DNA of 64,000 nucleotides from Candidatus Gastranaerophilales bacterium (lineage in GTDB: Bacteria > Cyanobacteriota > Vampirovibrionia > Gastranaerophilales > Gastranaerophilaceae): contig CALUWC010000005.1 in assembly GCA_944324395.1 (NCBI GenBank), positions 32,366-96,365 on the forward strand, given 5' to 3'. Both the position numbers and the translations under genes were made by a program. The notes below the pieces were generated by a model. It did not search any database and was not told the origin of the DNA. It saw nothing but the letters and a program-made list of their open reading frames with translations. This document shows positions 2,699 to 59,509 of the stretch, in pieces (position 1 is the first letter of the stretch; each line of letters opens with the position of its first letter).

Positions 2699-2867
2699 TT
2701 CTCTTCCTTTCGTTTTCTACTACTAATGAGATGTTTCATTCTACATGCATATAACGATTTAATTTTTATTTTTGTTCATTTTTTCTATTTTTATTATATT
2801 TGTTTTTAACAATTTGTCTAGATAAATATTAGAATTTGTGTTAAAATCAAGCTTATTGGAGGGGAGT

Positions 2868-4553
2868 ATGGACAAGAAAAAAAGTGTTATTAAGATAATA
2901 TTATTTGTTTTGCTAATAATTTTGGCAGCCGGATTAAGGTTGCTATATATAAATACTTCCTTCTGGTATGATGAAGCATGTTCTTGGTTTACGGCATCTA
3001 AAGCATTTCCAATGGGGATTATTGATAATCTTTTACATCTTGATTTGCAGCATACTCCGTTATATTTTTTCATTCTGCATTTTTGGATGAAAATTTTTGG
3101 AGATTCTGAAGTTGCTATCAGATCTTTATCTGTAATTTTTGCTATCGGAACAGTGCCTCTGGTTTATACTGCGGCTAAAAAACTTACCTCAGTGAAAAAT
3201 GCAATTATTGCGGTTCTTTTGGCTGCCGTAAGTCCTATTCTTGTGTTCTTTTCTACAGAGGCAAGAATGTATCCGCTGGTTATCTTTATGGTTATTTTAT
3301 CCGTAAATTATTTAATTGATTTTGAACAGAAAAATGATATAAAATCTCTGATTAAATTAGTATTTGCAAATCTTCTAATCCCTTATACTCTTGTAGGCGG
3401 AATTTTGTATAATGTTTCTCTTGTTATTTGCTATGGATGTTATTTATTTAAAGATAACAGAGAAAAGTTTTTCAGGTATATAAAGGCTGCTGTTGTTGAA
3501 TTCATACTGCTTATTCCGTATTTTGTTCTTATCGGCTATTATGCTAAAATGCGAAGTTTGTTCGTTGTAAGGCATGAAGGACCCCTTGCATTTTTTAATA
3601 TAATTGATTTAATCAGGAATTTCTTTGGTATTATTCTGACTCCAAATCCGTATTGGCCTGAATTAAATCCCTATGTTGTAACTCTGGTATTTACACTGCT
3701 TGTCATTGTTCCTTGTGTTTATTTCGTATACGGTTTGGTTCAAGGCTGTAAGCTTTCTGAAAAATTTTTGCAAGTCTTGTATTTTATATTCTTTTTAAAT
3801 TTTGGACTTGCCGTAGTTTGTTCATATTTTGAAATAAGTATATTTACGGTTCGTTATTATTTATACTTGCTGCCTCCGTTATTTATACTCGCTGTTATCG
3901 GCTTGTCAAAGAAGCTCTCTTTTAAGCATCTTGGCATTTTCGTGTCTATCTTTATAGCATCAGCCGTGTCATATAATATTCAACAACTTGATGTAATGTA
4001 TCATTTAAAATTTTTCGCATTTGAAGCTGTGAAGGCTGAAGCCGATGAGTTAAAACTGGGAAAAGATGATGTAATTATTATGCCGTTAGGTTCTGATGCT
4101 CCGTATTATTTCAGAAAGCCCGGATCTTCCAAAGTTTTCAATTTCGATTTTCATAAAGAGGTAAGAAATCCGTATAATTCTAATTATTATGATGCAGAAC
4201 AGCAGAAGTTAATGGACAAACCTGCAAAATATGGTGTTATTTATGATGCGGTGTTTGCAAATACTTATTTTTCAGAAAATCATTTTAAATATTTTACAAA
4301 AGAGGTTAATTCTTATGTGCCTTCCGGAAGATATGTATTGGTAGCATTATATGGCGGTGATGTTAATGCTATAGTTCAGCTCAGGGATTTACGTAAGTCT
4401 ATTTCAAGCGTTCAGGATATTAAAGACAGGTGTCTTGATATTATGCTGCAAAAATATATTTATGATATGGGTGAACTATTGAATTTGGATTTTGATTTAA
4501 TGAATTCCTATACTAAGGATAATTATACATATTTTATATTTAAAAAAAGATAA
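2868..4553 (+). CDS. GT-C fold glycosyltransferase (family 39 / ArnT-like), polytopic membrane protein
   Basis: More than 10 predicted TM helices. YDEA motif after the first TM segment. GGAGGGGA SD before ATG 2868 (track ORF starts at 2838). Confidence 0.6.
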   Translation: MDKKKSVIKIILFVLLIILAAGLRLLYINTSFWYDEACSWFTASKAFPMGIIDNLLHLDLQHTPLYFFILHFWMKIFGDSEVAIRSLSVIFAIGTVPLVYTAAKKLTSVKNAIIAVLLAAVSPILVFFSTEARMYPLVIFMVILSVNYLIDFEQKNDIKSLIKLVFANLLIPYTLVGGILYNVSLVICYGCYLFKDNREKFFRYIKAAVVEFILLIPYFVLIGYYAKMRSLFVVRHEGPLAFFNIIDLIRNFFGIILTPNPYWPELNPYVVTLVFTLLVIVPCVYFVYGLVQGCKLSEKFLQVLYFIFFLNFGLAVVCSYFEISIFTVRYYLYLLPPLFILAVIGLSKKLSFKHLGIFVSIFIASAVSYNIQQLDVMYHLKFFAFEAVKAEADELKLGKDDVIIMPLGSDAPYYFRKPGSSKVFNFDFHKEVRNPYNSNYYDAEQQKLMDKPAKYGVIYDAVFANTYFSENHFKYFTKEVNSYVPSGRYVLVALYGGDVNAIVQLRDLRKSISSVQDIKDRCLDIMLQKYIYDMGELLNLDFDLMNSYTKDNYTYFIFKKR

Positions 4554-4598
4554 TATGATTATTTATAAGTTATTATTATAATAATAAACAGAGGCTTT

Positions 4599-5003
4599 AT
4601 GTTAAATAAGATTATCAGTGTATTGTTATTTTTTATATTGTGTGTTTCTTCCGGATTAGTGTATGCAGAAACTTCCGAAGTTGAAACATGGCAGAAAGTT
4701 TCGGATAATAATTATATAAATCCTGATGGTGTTGTAGGTACAGAAGATATGTATGGATTTACGTTTATATTGAAATCTTATAACAAAGGTCAGTATGAAC
4801 CTGTTAATGGTCAAAAAATTCAGTATACATTAAGCCAGTATACAATAGATTGTGTGAAAAGACTTTATAAAATAGGAGTTATAGATTCTTACGGTTATCA
4901 AAATAATTTTGTAAACGGTGATTATAATAAATATGCTAAATTTCAGCCTATAGTTTCAGGAACGGCCGTAGGTGCTGTTGCTGCAAAATTATGCAGACCC
5001 TAG
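4599..5003 (+). CDS. Secreted hypothetical protein
   Basis: ORF with signal peptide (LLFFILCVSSGLVYA). Confidence 0.6.
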   Translation: MLNKIISVLLFFILCVSSGLVYAETSEVETWQKVSDNNYINPDGVVGTEDMYGFTFILKSYNKGQYEPVNGQKIQYTLSQYTIDCVKRLYKIGVIDSYGYQNNFVNGDYNKYAKFQPIVSGTAVGAVAAKLCRP

Positions 5004-5074: not shown

Positions 5075-5413
5075 TTATGCTGCAGTGTCTAATTTTTTAC
5101 CTGCTTCAGGAGTTTTAGTTTCAGAAGGTTTTGTTTCCGCAGGTTTTACTTCTTCTGTTTTTTTATCGTCAGCTTTTTTATTTGTTAATTCAACGGTATC
5201 TTTTTCCGGAGTTTTTTCTAATTGTATATTAGCTACATTTGAAATTAATTCTTTTTTAAAATCTTCCATAGACATTTGGCGGACACCGTTTTTATCGCCT
5301 ACAAGTGTAACGATTCCGTTATTTTTTGTTGCTGAAATATGCTCACCGTCTTTTGTTGTGTATTTGATTGTTGTAAAAGGTTTAAGGTTTGTGTTTTGTA
5401 CTGCTTCTGCCAT
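5075..5413 (-). CDS. Hypothetical protein with Lys/Glu/Thr/Pro-rich tail
   Basis: ORF with GAAAGGAAG SD. Preferred over the overlapping + strand ORF 5064-5456, whose Phe/Ser-rich composition looks like an antisense artefact. Confidence 0.6.
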   Translation of the reverse strand: MAEAVQNTNLKPFTTIKYTTKDGEHISATKNNGIVTLVGDKNGVRQMSMEDFKKELISNVANIQLEKTPEKDTVELTNKKADDKKTEEVKPAETKPSETKTPEAGKKLDTAA

Positions 5414-5567
5414 AATAAACTTCCTTTCATTTGATTTGTTTTTACCCTTCTGTTAAATCATGTGAATATTTATAATTGACTTTTTAGTTACTAACATTTA
5501 CATTTCTTAATTTTTACTTATATAAACTCCATTTGTTAAATTAACTAATTAATGATATTCTAATAGT

Positions 5568-6092
5568 ATGATTGATTTGATGATTTTATATGTATTGTTA
5601 AAGCACGATTTGACTATGTATGCAGTGCATAAGCGTATTCAAGAAAAGTTTTTAGCCTATACCGCTCCAAGTTTTGGGGCAATAAAACCAGCATTGGTCA
5701 GACTTGAAAAAGCCGGTTGTATTACATCTGCAAGAATTATGTCTGACGGCGGTAAATTATCAGTATTTTATTCAATAACAAAAGACGGTTCAAAAAGACT
5801 CAGGGAGCTTTTGTTAAATCCGTTTTCTTCCAATCCGCTTCAGTTTCTTTCAGATGCAAGAGTAAAATTATCCTGTGCCGGATTTTTGAATGCCGAGGAT
5901 TCTATGGAATTATTTATGGATATAAAATCAAATGCTCTGATGCATAAGGTAAATGCCGAAAAAATTCTGTCTGATGAATATACTCCTTTAGATTTTTATC
6001 AGAAAATTGTTTTGGATAATACTATTTGTGAATATAATAACTTTATATCAATGATTGAAGGGTTGGAAAAGAATAATGCCGGCAATAGTTAA
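5568..6092 (+). CDS. PadR-like winged-helix transcriptional regulator
   Basis: N-terminal LMILYVLLKHDLTMYAVHKRI... resembles the PadR wHTH. About 170 aa. Confidence 0.55.
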   Translation: MIDLMILYVLLKHDLTMYAVHKRIQEKFLAYTAPSFGAIKPALVRLEKAGCITSARIMSDGGKLSVFYSITKDGSKRLRELLLNPFSSNPLQFLSDARVKLSCAGFLNAEDSMELFMDIKSNALMHKVNAEKILSDEYTPLDFYQKIVLDNTICEYNNFISMIEGLEKNNAGNS

Positions 6093-7344
6093 CAGTGTTA
6101 TCCCAAATTCTATCGCTGAAGAACTGGAGATAGAAAAAGGAGATATAATCCTATCTGTCGATGGTAATGGTATGCTTGATATGATTGATTATAATTTTTA
6201 TATAAAATCAGAGCTGATTACTGTTGATGTTCAAAAAACTAATGGCGAAATTGAAGAAATAGAAATAGAAAAAGACTTTGATGAAGATTTAGGAATAGTT
6301 TTTGAAAGTGCTGTTTTTGACAAAATCAAACCCTGTTTAAATCATTGTATTTTTTGTTTTGTCGATCAGCAGCCCAAAGGGCTTCGAGACAGTTTGTATG
6401 TAAAAGATGATGATTACAGACTTTCTTATCTTCAGGGTACTTATATTACTTTAACAAATTTAAAAGATGAAGATAAGGAACGAATAAAAAGAATGCATCT
6501 GGGTCCTTTTTATGTTTCTGTTCATACTACCAATCCGGAATTAAGGGTTAAAATGCTCAGAAATCCTAATGCCGGTAAAAGTCTTGATACATTGCAATGG
6601 TTTCGCCGTAATAAAATTCCTTTTCATGCTCAAATTGTTTTGTGTCCCGGCATAAACGACGGGGAAGAATTAGAAAGAACATTATCTGATTTGGCAAAAC
6701 TTAAAAATACAGTTTTATCTGTCGCTATTGTGCCGGTTGGGTTAACTCAATTCAGACCAGACGGAGAACTTAGGAAGGTAGATAAAGAATGTGCATTGGA
6801 AACTATAAAAATAGCTTCTAAGTATAAAAGGGTTTGTTGTTCCGATGAATTTTTCTTGCTGGCAGAAAAGCCTATACCTCATGCAAAATATTACGGCAGC
6901 TATGCTCAATTGAGTGACGGGGTCGGAGCTTTGAGGTTGACTTATGATGATTTTAAATCTTTAGAACTTCCAAAATCTGTATCTAAACCTTACAAATTGG
7001 TTTTTGCGTGTTCTTATGCCGCCAAAGATATGTTGCTTAAAGTGTCAGAAAAATTGAATAAAATAAAAAATTTGTCTGTAGAAATCCATCCTGTTAAATC
7101 CGAATACTGGGGACAGGATATTACTGTTGCAGGGCTTATTACAACAGAAGATTTAGTTAGAACAGTAAAAGATGTAGAATGCGATATTGTTGTGATTCCG
7201 TCTGTTATGCTAAGACCGTACAGTGAAGATTTTCTTGACGGTAAAAATTTAGATTATGTAAAAGAAAAATCGGGTAAGAACTTTCTTGTTCAGAAAAATA
7301 TTTATTCGCTAAAAGAAGTTGTTGAATTTATTTCAGGTATCTGA
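6076..7344 (+). CDS. PDZ + radical-SAM-like DUF512 Fe-S protein
   Basis: CLNHCIFCF cysteine motif after an N-terminal PDZ-like segment (GDIILSVDG). ATG 6076 is preferred over 6055. Confidence 0.75.
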   Translation: MPAIVNSVIPNSIAEELEIEKGDIILSVDGNGMLDMIDYNFYIKSELITVDVQKTNGEIEEIEIEKDFDEDLGIVFESAVFDKIKPCLNHCIFCFVDQQPKGLRDSLYVKDDDYRLSYLQGTYITLTNLKDEDKERIKRMHLGPFYVSVHTTNPELRVKMLRNPNAGKSLDTLQWFRRNKIPFHAQIVLCPGINDGEELERTLSDLAKLKNTVLSVAIVPVGLTQFRPDGELRKVDKECALETIKIASKYKRVCCSDEFFLLAEKPIPHAKYYGSYAQLSDGVGALRLTYDDFKSLELPKSVSKPYKLVFACSYAAKDMLLKVSEKLNKIKNLSVEIHPVKSEYWGQDITVAGLITTEDLVRTVKDVECDIVVIPSVMLRPYSEDFLDGKNLDYVKEKSGKNFLVQKNIYSLKEVVEFISGI

Positions 7345-50892: not shown

Positions 50893-53800
50893 GTGAAAGT
50901 AAATTTTGATTTAAAAAAGGACAAGGTTGATAACAATAAACCGGTTTCATTTGAAGGGCATAAGTTTGTAAAATCTGATCGCGGGCTTCGTCAGTTTGAA
51001 TTTTCTTACCCGTATGATGAAAACAGAGATAAATGCTATATTGAGATTTATAAACTTGATACAGATCGTTATGGTAATTATTTTTCTACCGGCAAAGCTT
51101 ATTCCCGTAAGGGTGCTGATAAGCTGGAAGTTAAACCGGGAGTTAATCGTGTTGATTTAGCCAGAACTTTTGGTATTGAAGATAATCAAGCATTTGCTTA
51201 TCACTTTTTACTTGTTGATAAAAAGACCGGTTATACAAAAACCAGAGTTGATGCCGGTGAAGTTATTGATGAACGAAATCCTGCTAATCAAAATCGTAAT
51301 ATTTTCAACGTAGTTGTTCCTACAAAATCAAGTTTATCCAAGGGCGGAGCAATGAAACTGGTTATTATTGACTCCCAGAAAGTCGGTTATGTATATAATG
51401 ACCAGAATATGATAGTCCGAGATGAAAAGCTGGCCTCACGTGGGGAAAAAGGTATAAAAACGATTGCTAATAAATTCGGCGGTACTATTGCCGGGTTGGA
51501 ATATGCAATTGATAAAGGCGAATATGATAAATATGCCAGAATAATTTCATTACCGATTTTTACTGATGATGATTTTTCTGCACACGCTTACTGGAATAAA
51601 AACTGTATGCAGATGGCAAGTTCTCTCGGTAATATCAATAATTATGCATCTTTGCAAAGAAAAATGTTTGCTCATGGTTTGAATTTTGTATCTGATGGTG
51701 CATTTGTTAATGAGGGGCTTGAAGGTGTTCACTTCAAACACTTATTAAAATGGGGTGATGAATCTCCGTACTTAAATTGGTTTAGAGCTTCCGGAATAAA
51801 AAATAATCCGTTATCTCTTGGTGTATTTGTAAAAAATAAAGATTTCATTTCTCATAAAATTGTAAACTCTCCATATCGTTATTCTCAAAATAGAATGGGG
51901 CATGTTTCTATTAAGAAAAATCATGAATACAATCCAAAGAAACCTACATATATTCAATTCTTTGATACCAGATTGGTAACTGAAGAAGAACGTAATGATC
52001 ATAAATCTTTAATTAAAACTTATTCCGTAATGAGTACTCCTAATGTATATGACTTACATTCTCATAATGATTCAGTATTTCCTTATTATTTTGAAATCGA
52101 TCCGGAAGTATATAATAGTAATATTAAAAACTTAAATAAATATAATGATATCAATCCGGATAGTACGATTTCTATAACCAGTCCGAAAGGTGCTCGTTTC
52201 TTATCAAAATTCAGAAACTTTATGGTAGAAGGTAAATATGAAAGCGGATTTGAAACATGGGATGCAAACCCTGATATTGCAAAGTTGAATTTTGTATTCT
52301 CAAATGCCGATACTAAAGCCTTAAAGAATCTTCCTGTTGATGAAAGAAAACGTGAAATGCGGAAAATTATCAGAGGTAATTTCCAGGTTCAAGACTATGC
52401 AATTTCATCAGGTCAGTATTGGACGGCTAAAACTGATGATATTTTGCGTTTGTATATTGCACAAAGTTTGAGAAGTGTTGATGTAGAAAATCCTTCTAAA
52501 GTTTATAATCAGATTATGAATTTGTCTGATAATAAGATATTCCCTAAAATTTTAAAGACAGAAGTTTCTAAAGATGAAGTAGAAAATGTTATAGAAGGTA
52601 TTTATAGTAATAAGCGTAAATTATCCAAAGAGGACAAAAAGTCGCAAATTTTGGAAGGATTGATGAATACTCCGCTGGATTCTTTCGAATTTGGCGATAA
52701 TATAGTTTCAGTTCTGGCTTCTCCATTAATATCCAAAAGAGCGGTTGTAGCTTCAGAAGTTGGAGTTCCAAGGTATCAAATATATAAACAGGGTAACAAA
52801 CATTTATCTCCTGATTATAAAGATACATACGAAGAAATGGATAATATTTATACACATGAAATGTCAGATTTTGCAACTACGGTTTTAGATACTGTCGATT
52901 CTGTCCTGCCGGCTGACCGAAAATTGTTTGACGGAGATCAGGTTACTGAATATGGTAAGTATGTTTTGCCGTTGATACTTCCTATGATTGCAAAATATGC
53001 GGTTATCAAATCTTTAGATCCTGATATTACGGTTGCAATAAGTTCTTCTAACGGCGAAATGTCTTATGATTATAAGGAATTGAAAGAGTTATCGCTGCAG
53101 GGTATCGGAATTTTAAATCCTGCATCTCCTAAAGATGAGGCTCAAATGCTTCTCCGCCGTATAAAGAAAGGTATGACAAAATTAGATTCTTCTATTGACG
53201 GAGAAATGGTTGAAGCAATTGTAAGAACTCTTAAAGATACAAATGTTGAGAGTTTCAAATTAGCTGATTTGATTATTGATAAGACTCAATCCGGTTTGGA
53301 TTGGAGAATTGATGCAGCTAAAGATATCGCTGATGTTGAAGCTTTACGTAACAAAAATACAAATTTTGATTATACGTGGCGTCAAGTTATCGGCTTTTGG
53401 AAGAAATTTGTGCAAGGGGTTGTTGCTATTAATCCTAATGCTTATACTGTTGCAGAGGTTACAGATGAAATAAACTTGCATGATCGTGGTTATGGTGCAA
53501 ATTCAAGAAAATTCCCAAATCCAAATTATGATATTCTTGCAAAATTCCAGAGAGAAACCGGCATGACATCTCTTGCTAATTATAAGCACTGGTTTAGATT
53601 AGTTTCAAAATTGTTCGGTAAAGATTTTGAGGACGGTTCATATTTTGATAAGAGTACAGATGCACAAAAAGCTGTATATGATAAAATGATTGAATTTATC
53701 AGATCAGGCGGTTTAGATTCTGTTATGTATGCTTATACTTTTATCGGCAACCACGATAAGCCAAGAGCTTTGCATTGTGCAGCTTTAGATATGTCTTTGT

Positions 53801-55041
53801 TCTATTGTGATTTGAACTATGTTGAGGGCAGGGCAAACAGACGTAAAGCTTATCAAATTATAAAGGATAAATTCTTAGAACCTATTTCAGATTCTGAAGT
53901 CGACAATTATGATTTTTCTGCAGTATCTCCAAAAGCTATAGCAATGGCAGATGCTATAAGACCGGCTTTTGTTAATGTATTGAATAAATACAGAGAAAAA
54001 TATAAAGATCAATTAGGAACAGAAGAACAGTTTAATAGAGCGTTTGTTCCTATCAGTAAAGCAATTTCAGATTTAGCTCAGGGTATCTATATGGGTAAAC
54101 GTTTTGACCCTGATGCATTTGGTGTTAAACCTATAGATGTAACAATTTCTATGGTGTTGAAACAGGCAAGAACTCAGTATGGATTCCAATTGCCGCCCGG
54201 TGCTGATTCAAAATACGAAGATGAAGTCTTTGAGGCAGTTATGAAACCTGCGTTATCAAAAGTTCTGGCTATGATGAAATATCTTGTAGCTCTTCCGGGT
54301 ATGCCTACTTTATTTGACGGTGATGATGTCGGAGCTACAGGTTATGACCCTAAAACTAAAAATATGTACTTGCAGGGTCGTCAAAGAGTTCATGATGAAT
54401 GGCTGGATGTTACTGATGCTACAAAATATAAGGCCTTTATTGCAAAATATAAAAAATATTTTGATGAAACAATGGCAGTCAGAAGCAATCCGAAATGTAA
54501 CGCTTTGAATAACGGTGCTGTATATGTTCTTCCGTTGCAAGAGTCTAAGGAACATGTTAAAGTTCCTGCAGTATTTAGACAAAGTACAGATGGAAGAATG
54601 GCAATTTCCGTATTTAATACATCCGCTCTTCATACTGACCACAGGCGTGAATACAAACAAGATGATATTGTTTTGGATTCTATAAAACTTAACTTTGAAA
54701 CTCAAAAAGATAATGACGGAGCAGATAAAACGGTTTATGTTGACGGTGATGCCGGTGTCGGTATTCCAGGACTGAAGCCGGGAACTGTTTTTGTTAATGC
54801 TAAGAATGAAAATGATAAATATTATGTTAACGAACTTGACGGCAAGTATTTCATTAAACATGGATCCGGTGATGGTTCTATTACGTTGAATGATAGTACA
54901 TTGATATTGTATTCCGTACCAGAGGGTACTCCGCTTACATTTACGGGCAATTTGAACTTTAAACCTAATTCCCGTTTTGTTACTAATGCATATCAAAATA
55001 AGACGGATGTTTGCGGACAGAAGTTAGCTTTAATTAAATAA
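50893..55041 (+). CDS. Giant (1382 aa) GH13-like glycoside hydrolase with large internal insertion
   Basis: GGTIAGLEYAIDKG...ISLPIFTDD, DGAFVNEG (region I-like, aa ~268), GLDWRIDAAKD (region II, aa ~807), AEVTDE (region III, ~855), IGNHDKPR (region IV, ~955). GTG start after AAGGAG. Confidence 0.75.
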   Translation: MKVNFDLKKDKVDNNKPVSFEGHKFVKSDRGLRQFEFSYPYDENRDKCYIEIYKLDTDRYGNYFSTGKAYSRKGADKLEVKPGVNRVDLARTFGIEDNQAFAYHFLLVDKKTGYTKTRVDAGEVIDERNPANQNRNIFNVVVPTKSSLSKGGAMKLVIIDSQKVGYVYNDQNMIVRDEKLASRGEKGIKTIANKFGGTIAGLEYAIDKGEYDKYARIISLPIFTDDDFSAHAYWNKNCMQMASSLGNINNYASLQRKMFAHGLNFVSDGAFVNEGLEGVHFKHLLKWGDESPYLNWFRASGIKNNPLSLGVFVKNKDFISHKIVNSPYRYSQNRMGHVSIKKNHEYNPKKPTYIQFFDTRLVTEEERNDHKSLIKTYSVMSTPNVYDLHSHNDSVFPYYFEIDPEVYNSNIKNLNKYNDINPDSTISITSPKGARFLSKFRNFMVEGKYESGFETWDANPDIAKLNFVFSNADTKALKNLPVDERKREMRKIIRGNFQVQDYAISSGQYWTAKTDDILRLYIAQSLRSVDVENPSKVYNQIMNLSDNKIFPKILKTEVSKDEVENVIEGIYSNKRKLSKEDKKSQILEGLMNTPLDSFEFGDNIVSVLASPLISKRAVVASEVGVPRYQIYKQGNKHLSPDYKDTYEEMDNIYTHEMSDFATTVLDTVDSVLPADRKLFDGDQVTEYGKYVLPLILPMIAKYAVIKSLDPDITVAISSSNGEMSYDYKELKELSLQGIGILNPASPKDEAQMLLRRIKKGMTKLDSSIDGEMVEAIVRTLKDTNVESFKLADLIIDKTQSGLDWRIDAAKDIADVEALRNKNTNFDYTWRQVIGFWKKFVQGVVAINPNAYTVAEVTDEINLHDRGYGANSRKFPNPNYDILAKFQRETGMTSLANYKHWFRLVSKLFGKDFEDGSYFDKSTDAQKAVYDKMIEFIRSGGLDSVMYAYTFIGNHDKPRALHCAALDMSLFYCDLNYVEGRANRRKAYQIIKDKFLEPISDSEVDNYDFSAVSPKAIAMADAIRPAFVNVLNKYREKYKDQLGTEEQFNRAFVPISKAISDLAQGIYMGKRFDPDAFGVKPIDVTISMVLKQARTQYGFQLPPGADSKYEDEVFEAVMKPALSKVLAMMKYLVALPGMPTLFDGDDVGATGYDPKTKNMYLQGRQRVHDEWLDVTDATKYKAFIAKYKKYFDETMAVRSNPKCNALNNGAVYVLPLQESKEHVKVPAVFRQSTDGRMAISVFNTSALHTDHRREYKQDDIVLDSIKLNFETQKDNDGADKTVYVDGDAGVGIPGLKPGTVFVNAKNENDKYYVNELDGKYFIKHGSGDGSITLNDSTLILYSVPEGTPLTFTGNLNFKPNSRFVTNAYQNKTDVCGQKLALIK

Positions 55042-55088: not shown

Positions 55089-56186
55089 TTATACTGCAAA
55101 TCTGAAATGTACAAGATCTCCGTCTTGTATTACATAGTCTTTGCCTTCTAATCTAGTTACCCCTTTTTCTTTGCAGGCGGTGTAAGATCCAAGCTCAACA
55201 AAGTCTTTATAAGGTGTTATTTCTGCTCTGATGAAACCTTTTTCAAAGTCTGTATGAATTACTCCGGCAGCTTGCGGTGCTTTTGTGCCGGCTGTTATTG
55301 TCCAGGCTCTGACTTCTTTTTCTCCAGCTGTAATAAAAGTCCTGAGTTTTAGAAGATTATACACAGATTTTATCATTCTGTTTATACCACTGTCTTCAAT
55401 GCCAAGTTCTTTCAAATATTCTTCAGCTTCTTCTTTTCCCAGATCTGCCAATTCTTCTTCTATTTTTGCTGTTATAATAACCATTTCCGCACCATGTGTT
55501 TTAGCATATTCTTCGACCTTTTTTGTATAATCATTTCCGTTTTTGAGGTCAAATTCTGATACATTTGCACAGTATATTACCGGTTTGGTTGATAATAAAT
55601 TAAGACGTTTTACAATTGGTAGTTCATCTTCATCAAAGTGTTTTGTGATATCAATGAATGTGCAGTCAGATAATAAATCAGTAAGCTTTTTTAATACTTT
55701 ATCTTCCAAAACAGCTTCTTTATCTCCCGATTTAACTGTTTTAGCAATTCTTGTCTGCCGTCTTTCTACAGATGCCATATCTGCCAGAGCAAGTTCCGTG
55801 TTTATTGTTTCTATATCGCTTATAGGGTCTACTTTTCCTGCTACGTGTATTGTATTTTCGTCATCAAAGCATCTCACTACCTGAATGATAGCATCAACTT
55901 CTCTTATGTTTTGCAAAAATTGATTGCCTAAGCCTTCGCCCTTGCTGGCACCTTTTACTAATCCTGCAATGTCAACAAATTCTATGGCTGTAGGTATAAT
56001 TGTTTCTGTTTTACACAATTTTGCCAGTATAGGCAATCTTTCGTCCGGCACATCAACAACTCCAATGTTAGGTTCTATCGTGCAGAACGGATAATTTGCA
56101 CTCTGTGCGTTTCTTGCATTGGTAAGTGCATTAAATAATGTTGATTTCCCTACGTTTGGAAGTCCGATTATTCCTGTTCTAAGCAT
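55089..56186 (-). CDS. ychF: Ribosome-binding ATPase YchF
   Basis: GIIGLPNVGKSTLFNALT P-loop and C-terminal TGS-like domain, 365 aa. Confidence 0.93.
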   Translation of the reverse strand: MLRTGIIGLPNVGKSTLFNALTNARNAQSANYPFCTIEPNIGVVDVPDERLPILAKLCKTETIIPTAIEFVDIAGLVKGASKGEGLGNQFLQNIREVDAIIQVVRCFDDENTIHVAGKVDPISDIETINTELALADMASVERRQTRIAKTVKSGDKEAVLEDKVLKKLTDLLSDCTFIDITKHFDEDELPIVKRLNLLSTKPVIYCANVSEFDLKNGNDYTKKVEEYAKTHGAEMVIITAKIEEELADLGKEEAEEYLKELGIEDSGINRMIKSVYNLLKLRTFITAGEKEVRAWTITAGTKAPQAAGVIHTDFEKGFIRAEITPYKDFVELGSYTACKEKGVTRLEGKDYVIQDGDLVHFRFAV

Positions 56187-56365: not shown

Positions 56366-56407
56366 TCAATTTTTAAATCTAAAAATACTTTATATATATG
56401 TAAGGGA
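56366..56407 (+). promoter_or_regulatory. Shared upstream element, site S1
   Basis: TCAATT-N19(...AAAAATACTT)-TATATA-TATGTAAGGGA. Confidence 0.65.
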
Positions 56408-56441: not shown

Positions 56442-56612
56442 ATGAGAAATGATTATGAAATGATTACAGTTAAAGATTATGTTGAAAGCTTAAATGATGT
56501 AAGATGTTTAACTGTTGAAGAAAAAGAAATTGAAGCAAGTGTTGAAAAATATTTATTAAGCATTCAAAGAGCTAAAACAAATGAAAAAATCGTTGAAGCT
56601 TTGTTAGCATAA
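56442..56612 (+). CDS. Small protein (56 aa) of the ...ALLA tail family, not in the ORF track
   Basis: My translation: MRNDYEMITVKDYVESLNDVRCLTVEEKEIEASVEKYLLSIQRAKTNEKIVEALLA. AAAGGGGA SD. 33/56 identical to the 57547 product. Confidence 0.7.
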   Translation: MRNDYEMITVKDYVESLNDVRCLTVEEKEIEASVEKYLLSIQRAKTNEKIVEALLA

Positions 56613-56645
56613 TAAAAATATCAAAAATGTTATAATTAAATTTTA

Positions 56646-56674
56646 GGGGACTGATTGATAAAATCAGTCCTTCT
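56646..56674 (+). terminator. Intrinsic terminator
   Basis: GGACTGATT/AATCAGTCC stem followed by a T-rich tail. Confidence 0.65.
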
Positions 56675-56729
56675 CGATTATATGGATCTTTTTGATTGTA
56701 AATTTATGTTAATATTATATATAATTTAA

Positions 56730-56770
56730 GCAAATTTTATATGAAAAAATACTTTATATATGTGTAAGGG
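56730..56770 (+). promoter_or_regulatory. Shared upstream element, site S2
   Basis: GCAAAT-N19(...AAAAAATACTT)-TATATA-TGTGTAAGGGA. Confidence 0.65.
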
Positions 56771-56802
56771 AAATGATATTAAGAGAACAGGGGATCAAGA
56801 TT

Positions 56803-57099
56803 ATGGAAAGCTATTCAGGATTAATGACAGTTCAAGAATATGTAGAGTCAATGAGAAAAGAAAATGAACAAAGAACTACAATGATGACAGCTGCAGATTA
56901 TGCAAAATCTTTAAAGACTCAAAGTGCATTATTTCAAGCTTCTACATTGATAACAGTAAAAGAATATGCTCAAGCTTTAGACAGAGTTAAGTATTCAACT
57001 GCAGAGGATAGAGAAATCGAAAGATCAATCGAACTTTCACTTTCAAAATCCCGTAAAGCCAGAGTTAATGCTCAACTTCTTGAATCTATGTTAGGATAA
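56803..57099 (+). CDS. Small protein (98 aa), same family, with triplicated N-terminal motif
   Basis: ATG 56803 has a CAGGGGA SD, analogous to its paralogs (track start 56773 lies only ~13 nt after the TATATA box). Ends KARVNAQLLESMLG. Confidence 0.7.
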   Translation: MESYSGLMTVQEYVESMRKENEQRTTMMTAADYAKSLKTQSALFQASTLITVKEYAQALDRVKYSTAEDREIERSIELSLSKSRKARVNAQLLESMLG

Positions 57100-57123
57100 T
57101 TTATATAATTCAATAACAAGTTT

Positions 57124-57160
57124 GGCGGAACTGATTATTTAATCAGCTCCGCCTTATTAT
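57124..57160 (+). terminator. Intrinsic terminator
   Basis: 13-bp stem GGCGGAACTGATT/AATCAGCTCCGCC (1 mismatch) followed by TTATTATT. Confidence 0.7.
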
Positions 57161-57239
57161 TAGCTCCGAATTATTGTCCAGCCTTGTTTTTGAATTGTAA
57201 CATTATATTAAGATTATATACTTTTTAAGTAAAAAATAG

Positions 57240-57280
57240 GCAATTTTTTATAGAAAAAATACTTTATATATATGTAAGGG
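57240..57280 (+). promoter_or_regulatory. Shared upstream element, site S3
   Basis: GCAATT-N19(...AAAAAATACTT)-TATATA-TATGTAAGGGG. Confidence 0.65.
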
Positions 57281-57314
57281 GAATACTAACAGGGAAAAAT
57301 AAAAGGAGAAAAAT

Positions 57315-57503
57315 ATGGCCAGAGTATTAATTTCAATGCCTGAAAAATTTTTAAATGAGATTGATTTAGTAGCAGATTCTGAAAATCGTACTCGTTCTGA
57401 ATTGATTAGAGAAGCTCTCAGAACTTATATGTACAGATCTCAAGTTCGGAATGGTAAAAAAGCTGTTACTAACGCAGAAATTTTAGATGCATTACTTGGT
57501 TAG
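57315..57503 (+). CDS. Ribbon-helix-helix (CopG/Arc/MetJ-type) DNA-binding protein with the family tail
   Basis: RVLISMPEKFLNEIDLVADSENRTRSELIREALRTY is a typical RHH. Tail KAVTNAEILDALLG. AAGGAG SD. Confidence 0.8.
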   Translation: MARVLISMPEKFLNEIDLVADSENRTRSELIREALRTYMYRSQVRNGKKAVTNAEILDALLG

Positions 57504-57546
57504 ACTTGATGTATTCAGCAAGAATTTAAAATAAGGAACAGGGGAA

Positions 57547-57720
57547 ATGAAGAATAATTATCAAATGGTTACAGTTAAAGAGTATTTAAGTATGCTTGAT
57601 AATGATGTTAAGTACTTAGATACTGATGCTCAGGAAATTAAAGCTAATGTTGAAAAATATTTATTAAGTATTCGCAGAGCTCAGACTAATGCTAAAATTC
57701 TGGAGTCACTACTGGCATAA
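57547..57720 (+). CDS. Small protein (57 aa), same family, not in the ORF track
   Basis: My translation: MKNNYQMVTVKEYLSMLDNDVKYLDTDAQEIKANVEKYLLSIRRAQTNAKILESLLA. CAGGGGA SD. It starts 43 nt after the RHH gene. Confidence 0.7.
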   Translation: MKNNYQMVTVKEYLSMLDNDVKYLDTDAQEIKANVEKYLLSIRRAQTNAKILESLLA

Positions 57721-57794
57721 TAAAGGTTTTGAAAAAAAAGAACTTCTAGGATTATAATTCCACTCGGTAAAGATTAAGAAAGTAATGTAAGTAA

Positions 57795-57829
57795 CAAAAA
57801 ACCTGATATTTAATATATCAGGTTTTTTG
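57795..57829. terminator. Bidirectional terminator (small-gene array / tuf)
   Basis: AACCTGATAT/ATATCAGGTT stem flanked by A6 and T6 runs. Confidence 0.85.
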
Positions 57830-57855
57830 TTTGTATTTTCTAATATTGTTAGAAA

Positions 57856-59064
57856 CTATTCAATAATAGTATCAACAACACCAGCACCAACAGTTCTTCC
57901 GCCTTCACGAATAGCAAATCTCATACCTTGTTCGATAGCTACCGGAGCGATCAATTCAACTGTCATAACAACGTTATCACCAGGCATTACCATTTGACCG
58001 TCAAATTGGATTGAACCGGTTACGTCAGTTGTTCTGATGTAGAATTGAGGTCTGTAACCTGGGAAGAATGGAGTGTGACGTCCGCCTTCTTCTTTTGTTA
58101 ATACGTAAACGTTAGCTGTGAACTTAGTGTGCGGATGAATTGAACCTGGCTTAGCCAAAACTTGACCACGTTCGATTTCAGTTTTATCAACACCACGAAG
58201 TAAAGCACCAATGTTGTCACCAGCTTGACCTTGGTCAAGTGATTTTCTGAACATTTCAACACCGGTAACTGTAGTTTTCTTAGTAGGTTTAATACCAACT
58301 AATTCAACTTCATCACCAACTTTAACAATACCACGTTCAACACGACCTGTAGCAACAGTACCACGACCAGTGATTGAGAAGATGTCTTCAATCGGCATCA
58401 AGAATGGTTTGTCTAAATCTCTAACAGGATCAGGGAAGTATGAATCTAAAGCATCCATCAATTCCCAAATTTTATCTGTCCATTCATTTTCTCCTCTTTG
58501 GATATTAGGATTAGCTTGAACTGCTTCTAAAGCTTTCAAAGCTGAACCTTTAATGAATGGGATATTATCTCCGTCAAATTCGTATTGAGAAAGTAATTCT
58601 CTAACTTCCATTTCAACAAGGTCTAATAATTCAGGATCATCAACCATATCGCATTTGTTTAAGAATACAACAAGGTTAGGAACACCAACCTGTCTAGCTA
58701 ACAAGATGTGTTCACGAGTCTGAGGCATAGCACCATCAGTTGCTGCAACTACAAGAATTGCACCATCCATCTGAGCTGCACCTGTAATCATGTTTTTAAC
58801 ATAGTCAGCGTGGCCAGGGCAGTCAACGTGAGCATAGTGTCTTTTGTCTGTTTCATATTCTACGTGAGCAGTAGAGATAGTAATACCTCTTGCTTTTTCT
58901 TCAGGAGCAGCATCGATTTCATCGAATTTCTTAGCATCTGCTTTACCAGCTGCTGCTAATGTACCGGTAATTGCTGCTGTTAATGTAGTTTTACCGTGGT
59001 CAACGTGGCCGATTGTACCTACGTTAACGTGCGGTTTCGTACGTTCATACTTTTCACGTGCCAT
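57856..59064 (-). CDS. tuf: Elongation factor Tu
   Basis: Full-length EF-Tu ([18 protein letters not shown]) with the cyanobacterial-type insertion [21 protein letters not shown]. Confidence 0.97.
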
Positions 59065-59302: not shown

Positions 59303-59509
59303 ATGACCACCGAATTTTCAATTTCAAAAATATCAGGATCAGCAGTTAATAAATTAAATGATTGGGCAGATGGCACAAGAAATTATTTTACAGCACAGCA
59401 GAAAAAGAAATTTGATTTACCAGATTTGCTGTCCAAGGGTTTAGTTAACCCGGCATCAGCTTCTGCTGCCACTACAGCTACTCAGATGAATAATTTGGGT
59501 AATATATAG
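59303..59509 (+). CDS. Hypothetical 68-aa protein
   Basis: ORF with GGAGGA SD. Preceded by S4 and followed by a hairpin. Confidence 0.6.
   Translation: MTTEFSISKISGSAVNKLNDWADGTRNYFTAQQKKKFDLPDLLSKGLVNPASASAATTATQMNNLGNI

Follow-up and report, generated by a model that had tools for sequence, protein, structure and literature searches.

A tandem array of four small genes, here termed P1 to P4, lies on the plus strand between ychF and tuf in the stretch of DNA analysed (the window: 64,000 nucleotides (nt) of contig CALUWC010000005.1, positions 32,366 to 96,365, assembly GCA_944324395.1, from a Candidatus Gastranaerophilales bacterium). The window is AT-rich, with a G+C content of 34%. One of the four products, P3, is predicted to be a ribbon-helix-helix (RHH) regulator, all four end in a related C-terminal tail, and the question addressed here is what the three small neighbours of P3 may be and do. 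The features of the array, in window coordinates and with protein lengths in amino acids (aa), are as follows.

55089-56186, minus strand: ychF, one flank of the four-gene array
56366-56406, plus strand: promoter-like module before P1, TCAATTTTT-N-ATACTTTATATATATGTAAGGG, with an exact copy of a 22-nt element; found as a direct-repeat family and by the module regular expression
56442-56612, plus strand: P1, 56 aa, isoelectric point (pI) 4.7, RHH-derived paralogue, tail ...RAKTNEKIVEALLA
56646-56672, plus strand: terminator-like hairpin after P1, GGGGACTGATT/AATCAGTCCTT, -16.2 kcal/mol, z -3.2
56730-56770, plus strand: promoter-like module before P2, one mismatch in the 22-nt element; found by the module regular expression
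56803-57099, plus strand: P2, 98 aa, helix 2 like that of P1 and P4, tail ...KARVNAQLLESMLG
57124-57153, plus strand: terminator-like hairpin after P2, GGCGGAACTGATT/AATCAGCTCCGCC, -21.4 kcal/mol for the containing 76-nt stretch, z -4.9
57240-57280, plus strand: promoter-like module before P3, with the 22-nt element; found by the module regular expression
57315-57503, plus strand: P3, 62 aa, predicted CopG/MazE(EndoAI)-type RHH protein
57547-57720, plus strand: P4, 57 aa, RHH-derived partner
57793-57831, no strand assigned: terminator hairpin between P4 and tuf, an inverted repeat with a perfect 17-bp stem, placed to serve both genes
57856-59064, minus strand: tuf, the other flank, convergent with the array

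An earlier sequence-only reading of this DNA had described four plus-strand genes of 56, 98, 62 and 57 aa, and these are present at the coordinates it gave. The longest open reading frame (ORF) of P2 opens at 56773 (108 aa); the start at 56803 is preferred because the orthologues are 98 aa and the Shine-Dalgarno sequence fits. Two of the genes had been missing from the ORF track used by that reading, likely because P1 and P4 fall below the 60-aa default threshold of the ORF lister; public gene callers do annotate both. Comparison by BLASTP supports the likeness of P1 and P4, with a corrected count of 34 identical residues in 57 (E 2e-23) instead of the 33 in 56 first claimed, and P2 resembles both of them over its C-terminal 50 aa (39-44% identity, E ~1e-12). 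The BLASTP similarity of P3 to the other three is confined to the 14-aa tail (8 of 14 residues with P4). Orthologues with intact frames occur for all four genes in related contigs, those of P1 in L001-L006, L055, L180 and L182 (L numbers denote the stretches recovered from relatives), and comparison with the orthologues gave ratios of nonsynonymous to synonymous substitution (dN/dS) of 0.05-0.14 for P3, 0.05-0.23 for P4, 0.34-0.40 for P1 and 0.35-0.53 for P2. All four genes are under purifying selection, with P1 and P2 evolving faster.

The assignment of P3 as an RHH protein, made in the sequence-only reading, is upheld by a match to Pfam RHH_1 of 31.2 bits (cut-off 20.5, E 2e-7). The closest solved structure by sequence is that of the Bacillus subtilis antitoxin EndoAI/MazE (4ME7_E, E 7.9e-8), with similarity over the RHH domain only, and one database source labels a relative of P3 'antitoxin EndoAI'. 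The protein can be divided into an RHH core (residues 1-46), a linker (47-52) and a tail helix (53-61). In the AlphaFold model of the monomer the N-terminus lies outside any strand, helices span residues 10-23 and 27-46, and a break at 47-52, modelled at low confidence, precedes a separate tail helix at 53-61. When this model was searched with Foldseek, the top two matches and most of the following 14 were RHH proteins (probability at most 0.91, root mean square deviation 1.2-1.5 Å), among them CopA_SO, Rv0298, CdbA, PutA and StnY and, lower down, Arc and AmrZ; every E-value exceeded 0.1, which is to be expected for an alignment of ~40 residues. On this similarity P3 is suggested to be a DNA-binding regulator, small and chromosomally encoded, of the type of CopG and B. 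subtilis MazE (EndoAI).

P3 is a core gene across the recovered loci. It has 2302 homologues, with identity of at least 79% in all 120 among the matches listed, and it was found with its tail at all 49 genome loci recovered when one genome per species was scanned, with titles that almost all read Gastranaerophilales or Melainabacteria. Among 50%-identity cluster representatives, 1250 proteins match P3 at E <=0.001, and most of the 33 divergent representatives inspected consist of an RHH domain, a ~10-residue linker and ..NAxxLExLL... Within the clade of the window the gene is syntenic between ychF and tuf. A search of the literature on RHH proteins in Melainabacteria and on RHH antirepressors found nothing specific.

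The tail of the array follows the pattern N-x-x-[IL][LV][ED]-x-[LM]L-[AG]. Applied in six frames to the stop-to-stop ORFs of the window (all those of at least 20 aa), this pattern matched P1, P2, P3 and P4 and nothing else. In 805 kb of further related metagenome contigs (3645 ORFs) the same pattern returned RHH-family proteins and one 29-aa chance ORF. Across the window and ~1.3 Mb of related DNA (475 kb of RHH loci together with these further contigs), no other protein class was found to carry the tail. In P3 the tail forms an LxxLL-like helix (TNAEILDALLG, residues 53-61). The tail is conserved in orthologues, in that all full-length RHH copies recovered end N-A-x-[IL]-L-[ED]-x-L-L-[G/S/D/E]; the end residue varies (G, S, D, E, A or N, or the extensions LLED, LLGQ.. 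and LLSK), and despite this the inner pattern N-A-x-x-L-E-x-L-L is kept. At its third position the tail has a Glu in P3 (within the clade of the window) and a Lys in P4. Given that most of the divergent RHH representatives share the architecture of RHH domain, linker and tail, the tail is an old feature of this RHH subfamily. A role as a membrane-targeting amphipathic helix was considered and rejected because the sequence of the tail is acidic or neutral and its helical hydrophobic moment ordinary, being matched by 31-57% of shuffles of the same residues.

The hydrophobic C-termini LLA and LLG raise the possibility that the tail is a degron resembling the ssrA tag, in which case all four proteins would be unstable and the paralogues would compete with P3 as protease substrates. 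RHH antitoxins are typically protease substrates, and an extra paralogue in the relative L038 ends ...QQALAA. Nevertheless, this scenario is very improbable for three reasons: first, it is the terminal residue that varies, while the internal N-A-x-x-L-E-x-L-L is conserved; second, acidic C-termini make poor ClpX LAA-type signals; third, the tail of P4 is modelled as a confident helix. No transfer-messenger RNA with which to compare an ssrA tag and the tail was found in the sequence examined.

The relationship of P1, P2 and P4 to the RHH protein does not emerge from searches of family databases. None of the three matched a family in Pfam, NCBIfam, PHROGs or PADLOC, and eight orthologous variants of P1, P2 or P4 type gave no RHH match in Pfam (E up to 1-10). 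Profile-profile comparison was made with hhalign between an alignment of 182 RHH sequences and the families of partners, a partner being P4 or its counterpart 3' of the RHH gene elsewhere. For the tail-bearing partners of P4 type, residues 11-57 of P4 align with RHH residues 10-62 in 48 columns that take in helix 1, helix 2 and the tail (probability 96%, E 3.8e-9), and the tail-less P4 orthologues of other species align with RHH helices 1-2 (probability 74%, E 2.9e-5). Earlier profile comparisons agree with this match of the P4 family to the RHH family. Because the tail-less orthologues still align over both helices, the homology does not depend on the tail alone. Given the hhalign match, P1, P2 and P4 are diverged derivatives of the RHH gene in which helix 1, helix 2 and the tail have been retained; the small proteins fall in no family unrelated to RHH.

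The sequence-only reading had threaded the three small proteins onto the RHH pattern, strand included, and had taken the array to be a diversified RHH family. For helix 1, helix 2 and the tail the homology described above agrees with this, but it does not extend with confidence to the strand that forms the ribbon: Pfam gives no match, and the N-terminal nine residues of the P4-type family align to RHH at low confidence only (hhalign -mact 0.05). In the AlphaFold model of P4 (pLDDT, the predicted local distance difference test, 83, and 90-94 over residues 31-57) residues 1-9 are coil, followed by a helix at 10-20 and a long helix at 26-56 in which helix 2 and the tail are continuous. Moreover, Arg3, which is invariant in the RHH ribbon, has no basic counterpart in P1, P2 or P4. 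In the hhalign register Asn4 and Gln6 of P4 are placed on the putative DNA-facing side; P1 carries Glu6 where P4 usually has Gln, and has a net charge of -4.5 with its pI of 4.7.

The N-terminal region has also been reorganised in P2. A motif [LM][MI]T[VA]x[ED]Y, present once in P1 and P4 (at residue 7), occurs three times in P2 (at residues 7, 27 and 49), in tandem 22-aa units that form a direct repeat with 66-nt spacing, so that P2 has three strand/helix-1 units and one helix 2. A homologue search with P2 found five close relatives only (98-130 aa), and all three motifs are also present in P2-like proteins (95-103 aa) that are more distant. A 73-aa variant present in three species (L014, L019, L024) combines the N-terminal motif, a strand-helix-helix that is RHH-like by eye (VVLALPAKAINELQTVKYSKNRSELVSKTLKKYL) and a P4-type tail; this variant bridges the P4-type and RHH families.

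Given homology that covers helix 1, helix 2 and the tail, all four proteins might be independent RHH DNA-binding regulators with diverged specificities, the tail serving homo-tetramerisation in the manner of the C-terminal helix of Mnt. The precedent is provided by Mnt and AmrZ, two RHH proteins that oligomerise through C-terminal regions; the position of Asn4 and Gln6 in P4 and the strong purifying selection on that gene are consistent with such a role. However, this is unlikely. None of 11 sequences of P1, P2 or P4 type matches Pfam RHH, the N-terminal region aligns at low confidence only, Arg3 is without a basic equivalent, and P1 has Glu6 and a net charge of -4.5. Furthermore, three strand/helix-1 units with a single helix 2 make a standard RHH domain impossible in P2, and a Foldseek search of PDB and BFVD with the P4 model retrieved no RHH protein and no meaningful match.

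The organisation of the array suggests how the paralogues arose. The 22-nt element ATACTTTATATATATGTAAGGG has exactly three copies in the window (at most one mismatch), before P1, P2 and P3, where the chance expectation is zero, and each copy ends 33-36 nt 5' of the start codon. The hairpins after P1 and P2 both contain ACTGATT...AATCAG; Rfam gave only sub-threshold terminator-like matches on the array region. The proposal of the sequence-only reading that promoter, gene and terminator were duplicated as units is therefore borne out by the three copies of the element and the two related hairpins. Three transcription units are predicted, P1, P2 and P3-P4: the gap between P3 and P4 is 43 nt and P4 lacks a promoter-like module of its own, and P3 and P4 are probably co-transcribed.

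Two blocks of this module, GCAATTTTT and (C)TTTATATA, are separated by 12-13 nt and hardly vary 5' of the RHH gene throughout the order; the pattern can be written GCAATTTTT-N12-13-(C)TTTATATA[AT][AG]T.., and the class also as GCAATTTTT-N13-CTTTATATA. In the 540 kb that surround RHH loci, only RHH-family genes are preceded by the full module, and a loosened pattern also occurs at a few unrelated sites. A scan of metagenome contigs with GCAATTTTT-N12-15-TTTATATAWRTR returned 120 stretches (L056-L175), in which ~88 copies of the module lie 11-97 nt (mostly <50) 5' of unrelated genes, mostly small and unannotatable. Given these ~88 genes, the possibility that the module is an operator dedicated to the RHH protein was rejected, and the module appears instead to be a lineage-specific promoter-like class. 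Families that recur behind it include '..DPIYYVFDCIENRPISTLAKEFVKD..', 'MTNPMYSSQPNYSGVTIQIANPAVYAG..' and '..RESFFYGANRFGNNFIA', and proteins rich in G, M, N and Y. In L033 and L039, ~190 nt separate the module from the RHH start codon, with an insertion that contains repeated 'CCTTGAGAAAG(C/T)ACGG'.

A partner gene lies 21-89 nt 3' of the RHH gene at 37 of 55 loci. The tail-bearing form seen in the window ends ...EKYLLxxRRAQTNAKILEALLA; a tail-less form, YIMSSLDEYFEILDKENKKRSELVAKSLVKYLQKSKE..KFQALQVAK, occurs at 20 loci, where the RHH protein has 75-85% identity to that of the window, and a partner is absent at ~17 loci. Between ychF and tuf the following gene orders were found.

L007, L009, L032: RHH-P4
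L001, L055, L182: P1-RHH-P4
L008, L015, L184, L186: P2-RHH-P4
L003-L006: P2-P1-RHH-P4
window: P1-P2-RHH-P4
L180, L181: P1-P1'-P2-RHH-P4

The array thus contains 2 to 5 genes, in orders that are swapped between relatives, and appears to grow by duplication of whole promoter-gene-terminator units. A fresh duplication of P1 is seen in L180 and L181, where the two copies are identical at 54 of 56 residues. The extra paralogue of L038 (~4790-4960) is 55 aa long, lies 5' of the RHH gene behind the same promoter-like module and ends ...KYLRNKKEQQALAA, an ssrA-like LAA terminus.

In gene order, with a small gene behind the RHH gene, P3 and P4 resemble a toxin-antitoxin module, and the best PDB match of P3 is an antitoxin, as is the protein after which one of its relatives has been named. 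This raises the possibility of a type II toxin-antitoxin-like pair with P3 as the antitoxin and P4, together with P1 and P2, as the toxin or toxins. Such a pair is extremely improbable, given that P4 itself is RHH-derived and that P1, P2 and P4 match no toxin family and nothing in PADLOC. In addition, the RHH gene behaves as a single-copy-looking core gene, present at every genome locus recovered and in synteny with ychF and tuf; the patchy distribution of a mobile module is not seen, the dN/dS of P3 is low (0.05-0.14) and roughly one locus in three lacks a partner gene.

It is suggested instead, at a probability of roughly 0.45, that P1, P2 and P4, themselves RHH-derived, modulate P3 by pairing with it, the contact being made by the helix 2 and tail common to all four, in a logic like that of SinI and SinR. 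In SinR and SinI the small protein carries the oligomerisation segment of the repressor; in the array the small proteins share helix 2 and the tail with P3, and the genes are adjacent. In this scenario the small proteins would not be independent repressors but would associate with P3 either as mixed RHH-type ribbon dimers with a defective DNA-reading face or by tail-tail contacts between dimers, and the outcome would be a tuning of P3 oligomerisation on DNA, with the assembly of dimers of dimers altered. The ribbon region has been remodelled in the paralogues: a counterpart of Arg3 is missing, P1 is acidic, and P2 has its strand/helix-1 unit in triplicate. One could speculate that Glu at tail position 3 of P3 and Lys in P4 would favour hetero-pairing over self-pairing.

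Several observations weigh against this modulator role. The RHH tail is kept at the 20 loci with a tail-less partner and at the ~17 without any partner. Given that most species keep it in the absence of a tail-bearing partner, the primary role of the tail is not paralogue binding; and since it predates and persists without tail-bearing paralogues, its primary function must be intrinsic to the RHH protein, namely self-oligomerisation, or must involve another partner. The polar residues Asn4 and Gln6 of P4 occupy RHH DNA-contact positions, and P4 could therefore still bind DNA. The Foldseek search described above did not connect the P4 model to RHH folds, and the hydrophobic moment of the tail, reached by 31-57% of shuffles, is unremarkable. 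Finally, as the module is a general promoter-like class, it provides no evidence of autoregulation.

The persistence of the tail without tail-bearing paralogues also bears on a different explanation, in which the tail docks onto a third protein encoded elsewhere and the paralogues are competitors, decoys or deliverers. Candidates for this third protein include toxin-like enzymes, protease adaptors, ATPases of the cytoskeletal or partition kind, and flagellar chaperones such as FliS or FliW. The tail is ancestral on the RHH protein, it sits on a low-confidence linker in the AlphaFold model of P3, and 4ME7_E, the nearest solved relative, is an antitoxin. The C-terminal extension of the EndoAI antitoxin binds its toxin. 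ParR-type RHH proteins bind ParM/CorM by a C-terminal peptide (10.1101/2025.06.27.661541), which sets a precedent for this kind of docking. The RHH gene moreover lies in a flagellar cluster in L178/L179 and beside flagellin in L050, and fliW-csrA is found on the module-bearing contig L174. Docking to a third partner is nonetheless considered rather unlikely, as no conserved candidate was found beside the RHH gene, whose neighbours vary widely among loci, as ~1.4 Mb of scanned sequence revealed the tail on no further class of protein, and as there is no flagellin or FlgM family match and the flagellar neighbours are limited to two lineages.

The flagellar connection had been raised in the sequence-only reading, which likened the tail to the C-termini of flagellins and FlgM and took GGA motifs in the leaders as possible sites for CsrA-type regulators. 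No array protein matches Flagellin_C or FlgM in Pfam or NCBIfam, and the likeness is limited to a ~9-residue motif. GGA does occur in the leaders, within a GTAAGGG motif, near which the transcription start sites are predicted to lie, and in the Shine-Dalgarno sequence. However, GTAAG/GTACGAG-type sequence, several examples with GG, also trails the module before unrelated genes, and with GGA generic to the module class and to every Shine-Dalgarno sequence the main support for CsrA is removed. A tblastn search of the window for CsrA, FliW and FliS found nothing; elsewhere, an adjacent fliW-csrA pair was located at 3087-3691 of L174, a metagenome contig that also has two copies of the module. Flagellar genes stand beside the RHH gene in two sampled lineages only, L050 (flagellin) and L178/L179 (CTP_transf_3, FlgL, FlgK). 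With no family match, no other protein class bearing the tail and flagellar neighbours so restricted, the analogy gains no support. It is very improbable that the tail is a signal for a cellular machine (a flagellar export chaperone or the FliW/FliS system, as for flagellin and FlgM, or a protease adaptor) and that the array is a titratable set of decoys by which the activity of the order-wide RHH regulator would follow the state of such a machine, in the manner of an FlgM-like checkpoint. In L178 the divergent RHH gene is preceded by 1.1 kb of intergenic sequence (2836-4000) with GC-rich repeats ('CACCCTCACCCCTGCCCTCTCCCTTTAGGGAGAGGG') in an AT-rich genome, and downstream of this region and the gene are CTP_transf_3, a 621-aa protein without assignment, FlgL and FlgK.

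The systems that most resemble the proposed modulators are SinR-SinI and SlrR-SlrA of B. subtilis, in which a DNA-binding repressor is accompanied by neighbouring proteins of ~55 aa with a homologous C-terminal helical segment (PMC3163267). The segment that SinR and SinI have in common forms the surface of their heterodimer (PMC3163267), and in these systems, as in the array, the small proteins are paralogous derivatives. There are, however, clear differences: SinR is a helix-turn-helix protein and not an RHH protein, no SinR/SinI Pfam match (HTH_3, SinI domain) occurs in the array, and the heteromer of P3 is one that we only infer here. In addition, the small proteins of the array retain most of a DNA-binding scaffold and belong to a tandem array of variable copy number. 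The resemblance is thus to be taken as an analogy of logic and not as membership.

Other comparisons concern P3 itself. MazE/EndoAI (PDB 4ME7), CopA_SO and Rv0298 have the nearest RHH domains by sequence and fold and carry a C-terminal extension for protein binding, whereas P3 has no adjacent toxin gene, an extension of only ~16 residues and the standing of an order-wide core chromosomal gene. Mnt of phage P22 and AmrZ combine an RHH domain with a C-terminal helix able to join dimers into tetramers; the coiled coil of Mnt is ~30 residues long, in contrast to ~9-11 for the tail of the array, a tetramer of P3 is a conjecture, and we know of no paralogous decoys for Mnt. In ParR/CorR, too, an RHH dimer docks onto a partner protein by means of a short peptide at its C-terminus, but P3 is much smaller and has no linked ParM-like or other partner gene.

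For the small proteins, the tandem repetition of the strand/helix-1 unit in P2 and in the 73-aa variant recalls TraY, which consists of tandem RHH repeats in one chain, although P2 repeats part of the fold only. Retention by small paralogues of the interaction module of a transcription factor is also a property of the eukaryotic micro-proteins Id and LITTLE ZIPPER, to which the likeness is an analogy only. If P1, P2 and P4 do pair with P3 through the shared helix and tail, the array would constitute an RHH-based counterpart of the SinI/SinR antirepressor principle and a bacterial example of transcription-factor-derived "micro-proteins". The analysis further defines three small-protein families without existing annotation and a conserved C-terminal motif on an order-wide core regulator, in a family that appears to be caught mid-expansion, by duplication of promoter-gene-terminator units, in an uncultured and little-studied gut lineage, the Gastranaerophilales.

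Three other genes of the window have relatives near RHH loci or in the same neighbourhood. A 1382-aa protein encoded at 50893-55041 on the plus strand has no Pfam match and, by eye, a GH13-like 'FIGNHDKPRALH' motif; it is syntenic upstream of ychF in L001-L006, L180, L182 and L184. An unannotated family with N-terminal 'SSQARLL.LT.R' and C-terminal '..FKLFS', again without a Pfam match, is represented in the window at 20828-21880 (minus strand), in L034 at 3889-4677 and in L053 at 5373-7274, and adjoins the RHH gene in L034 and L053. A small ORF of 61-71 aa, unrelated to the tail family and with no match in Pfam, lies between tuf and coaX in all relatives (window 59303-59509, plus strand; L180 4754-4960; L182 4739-4942).

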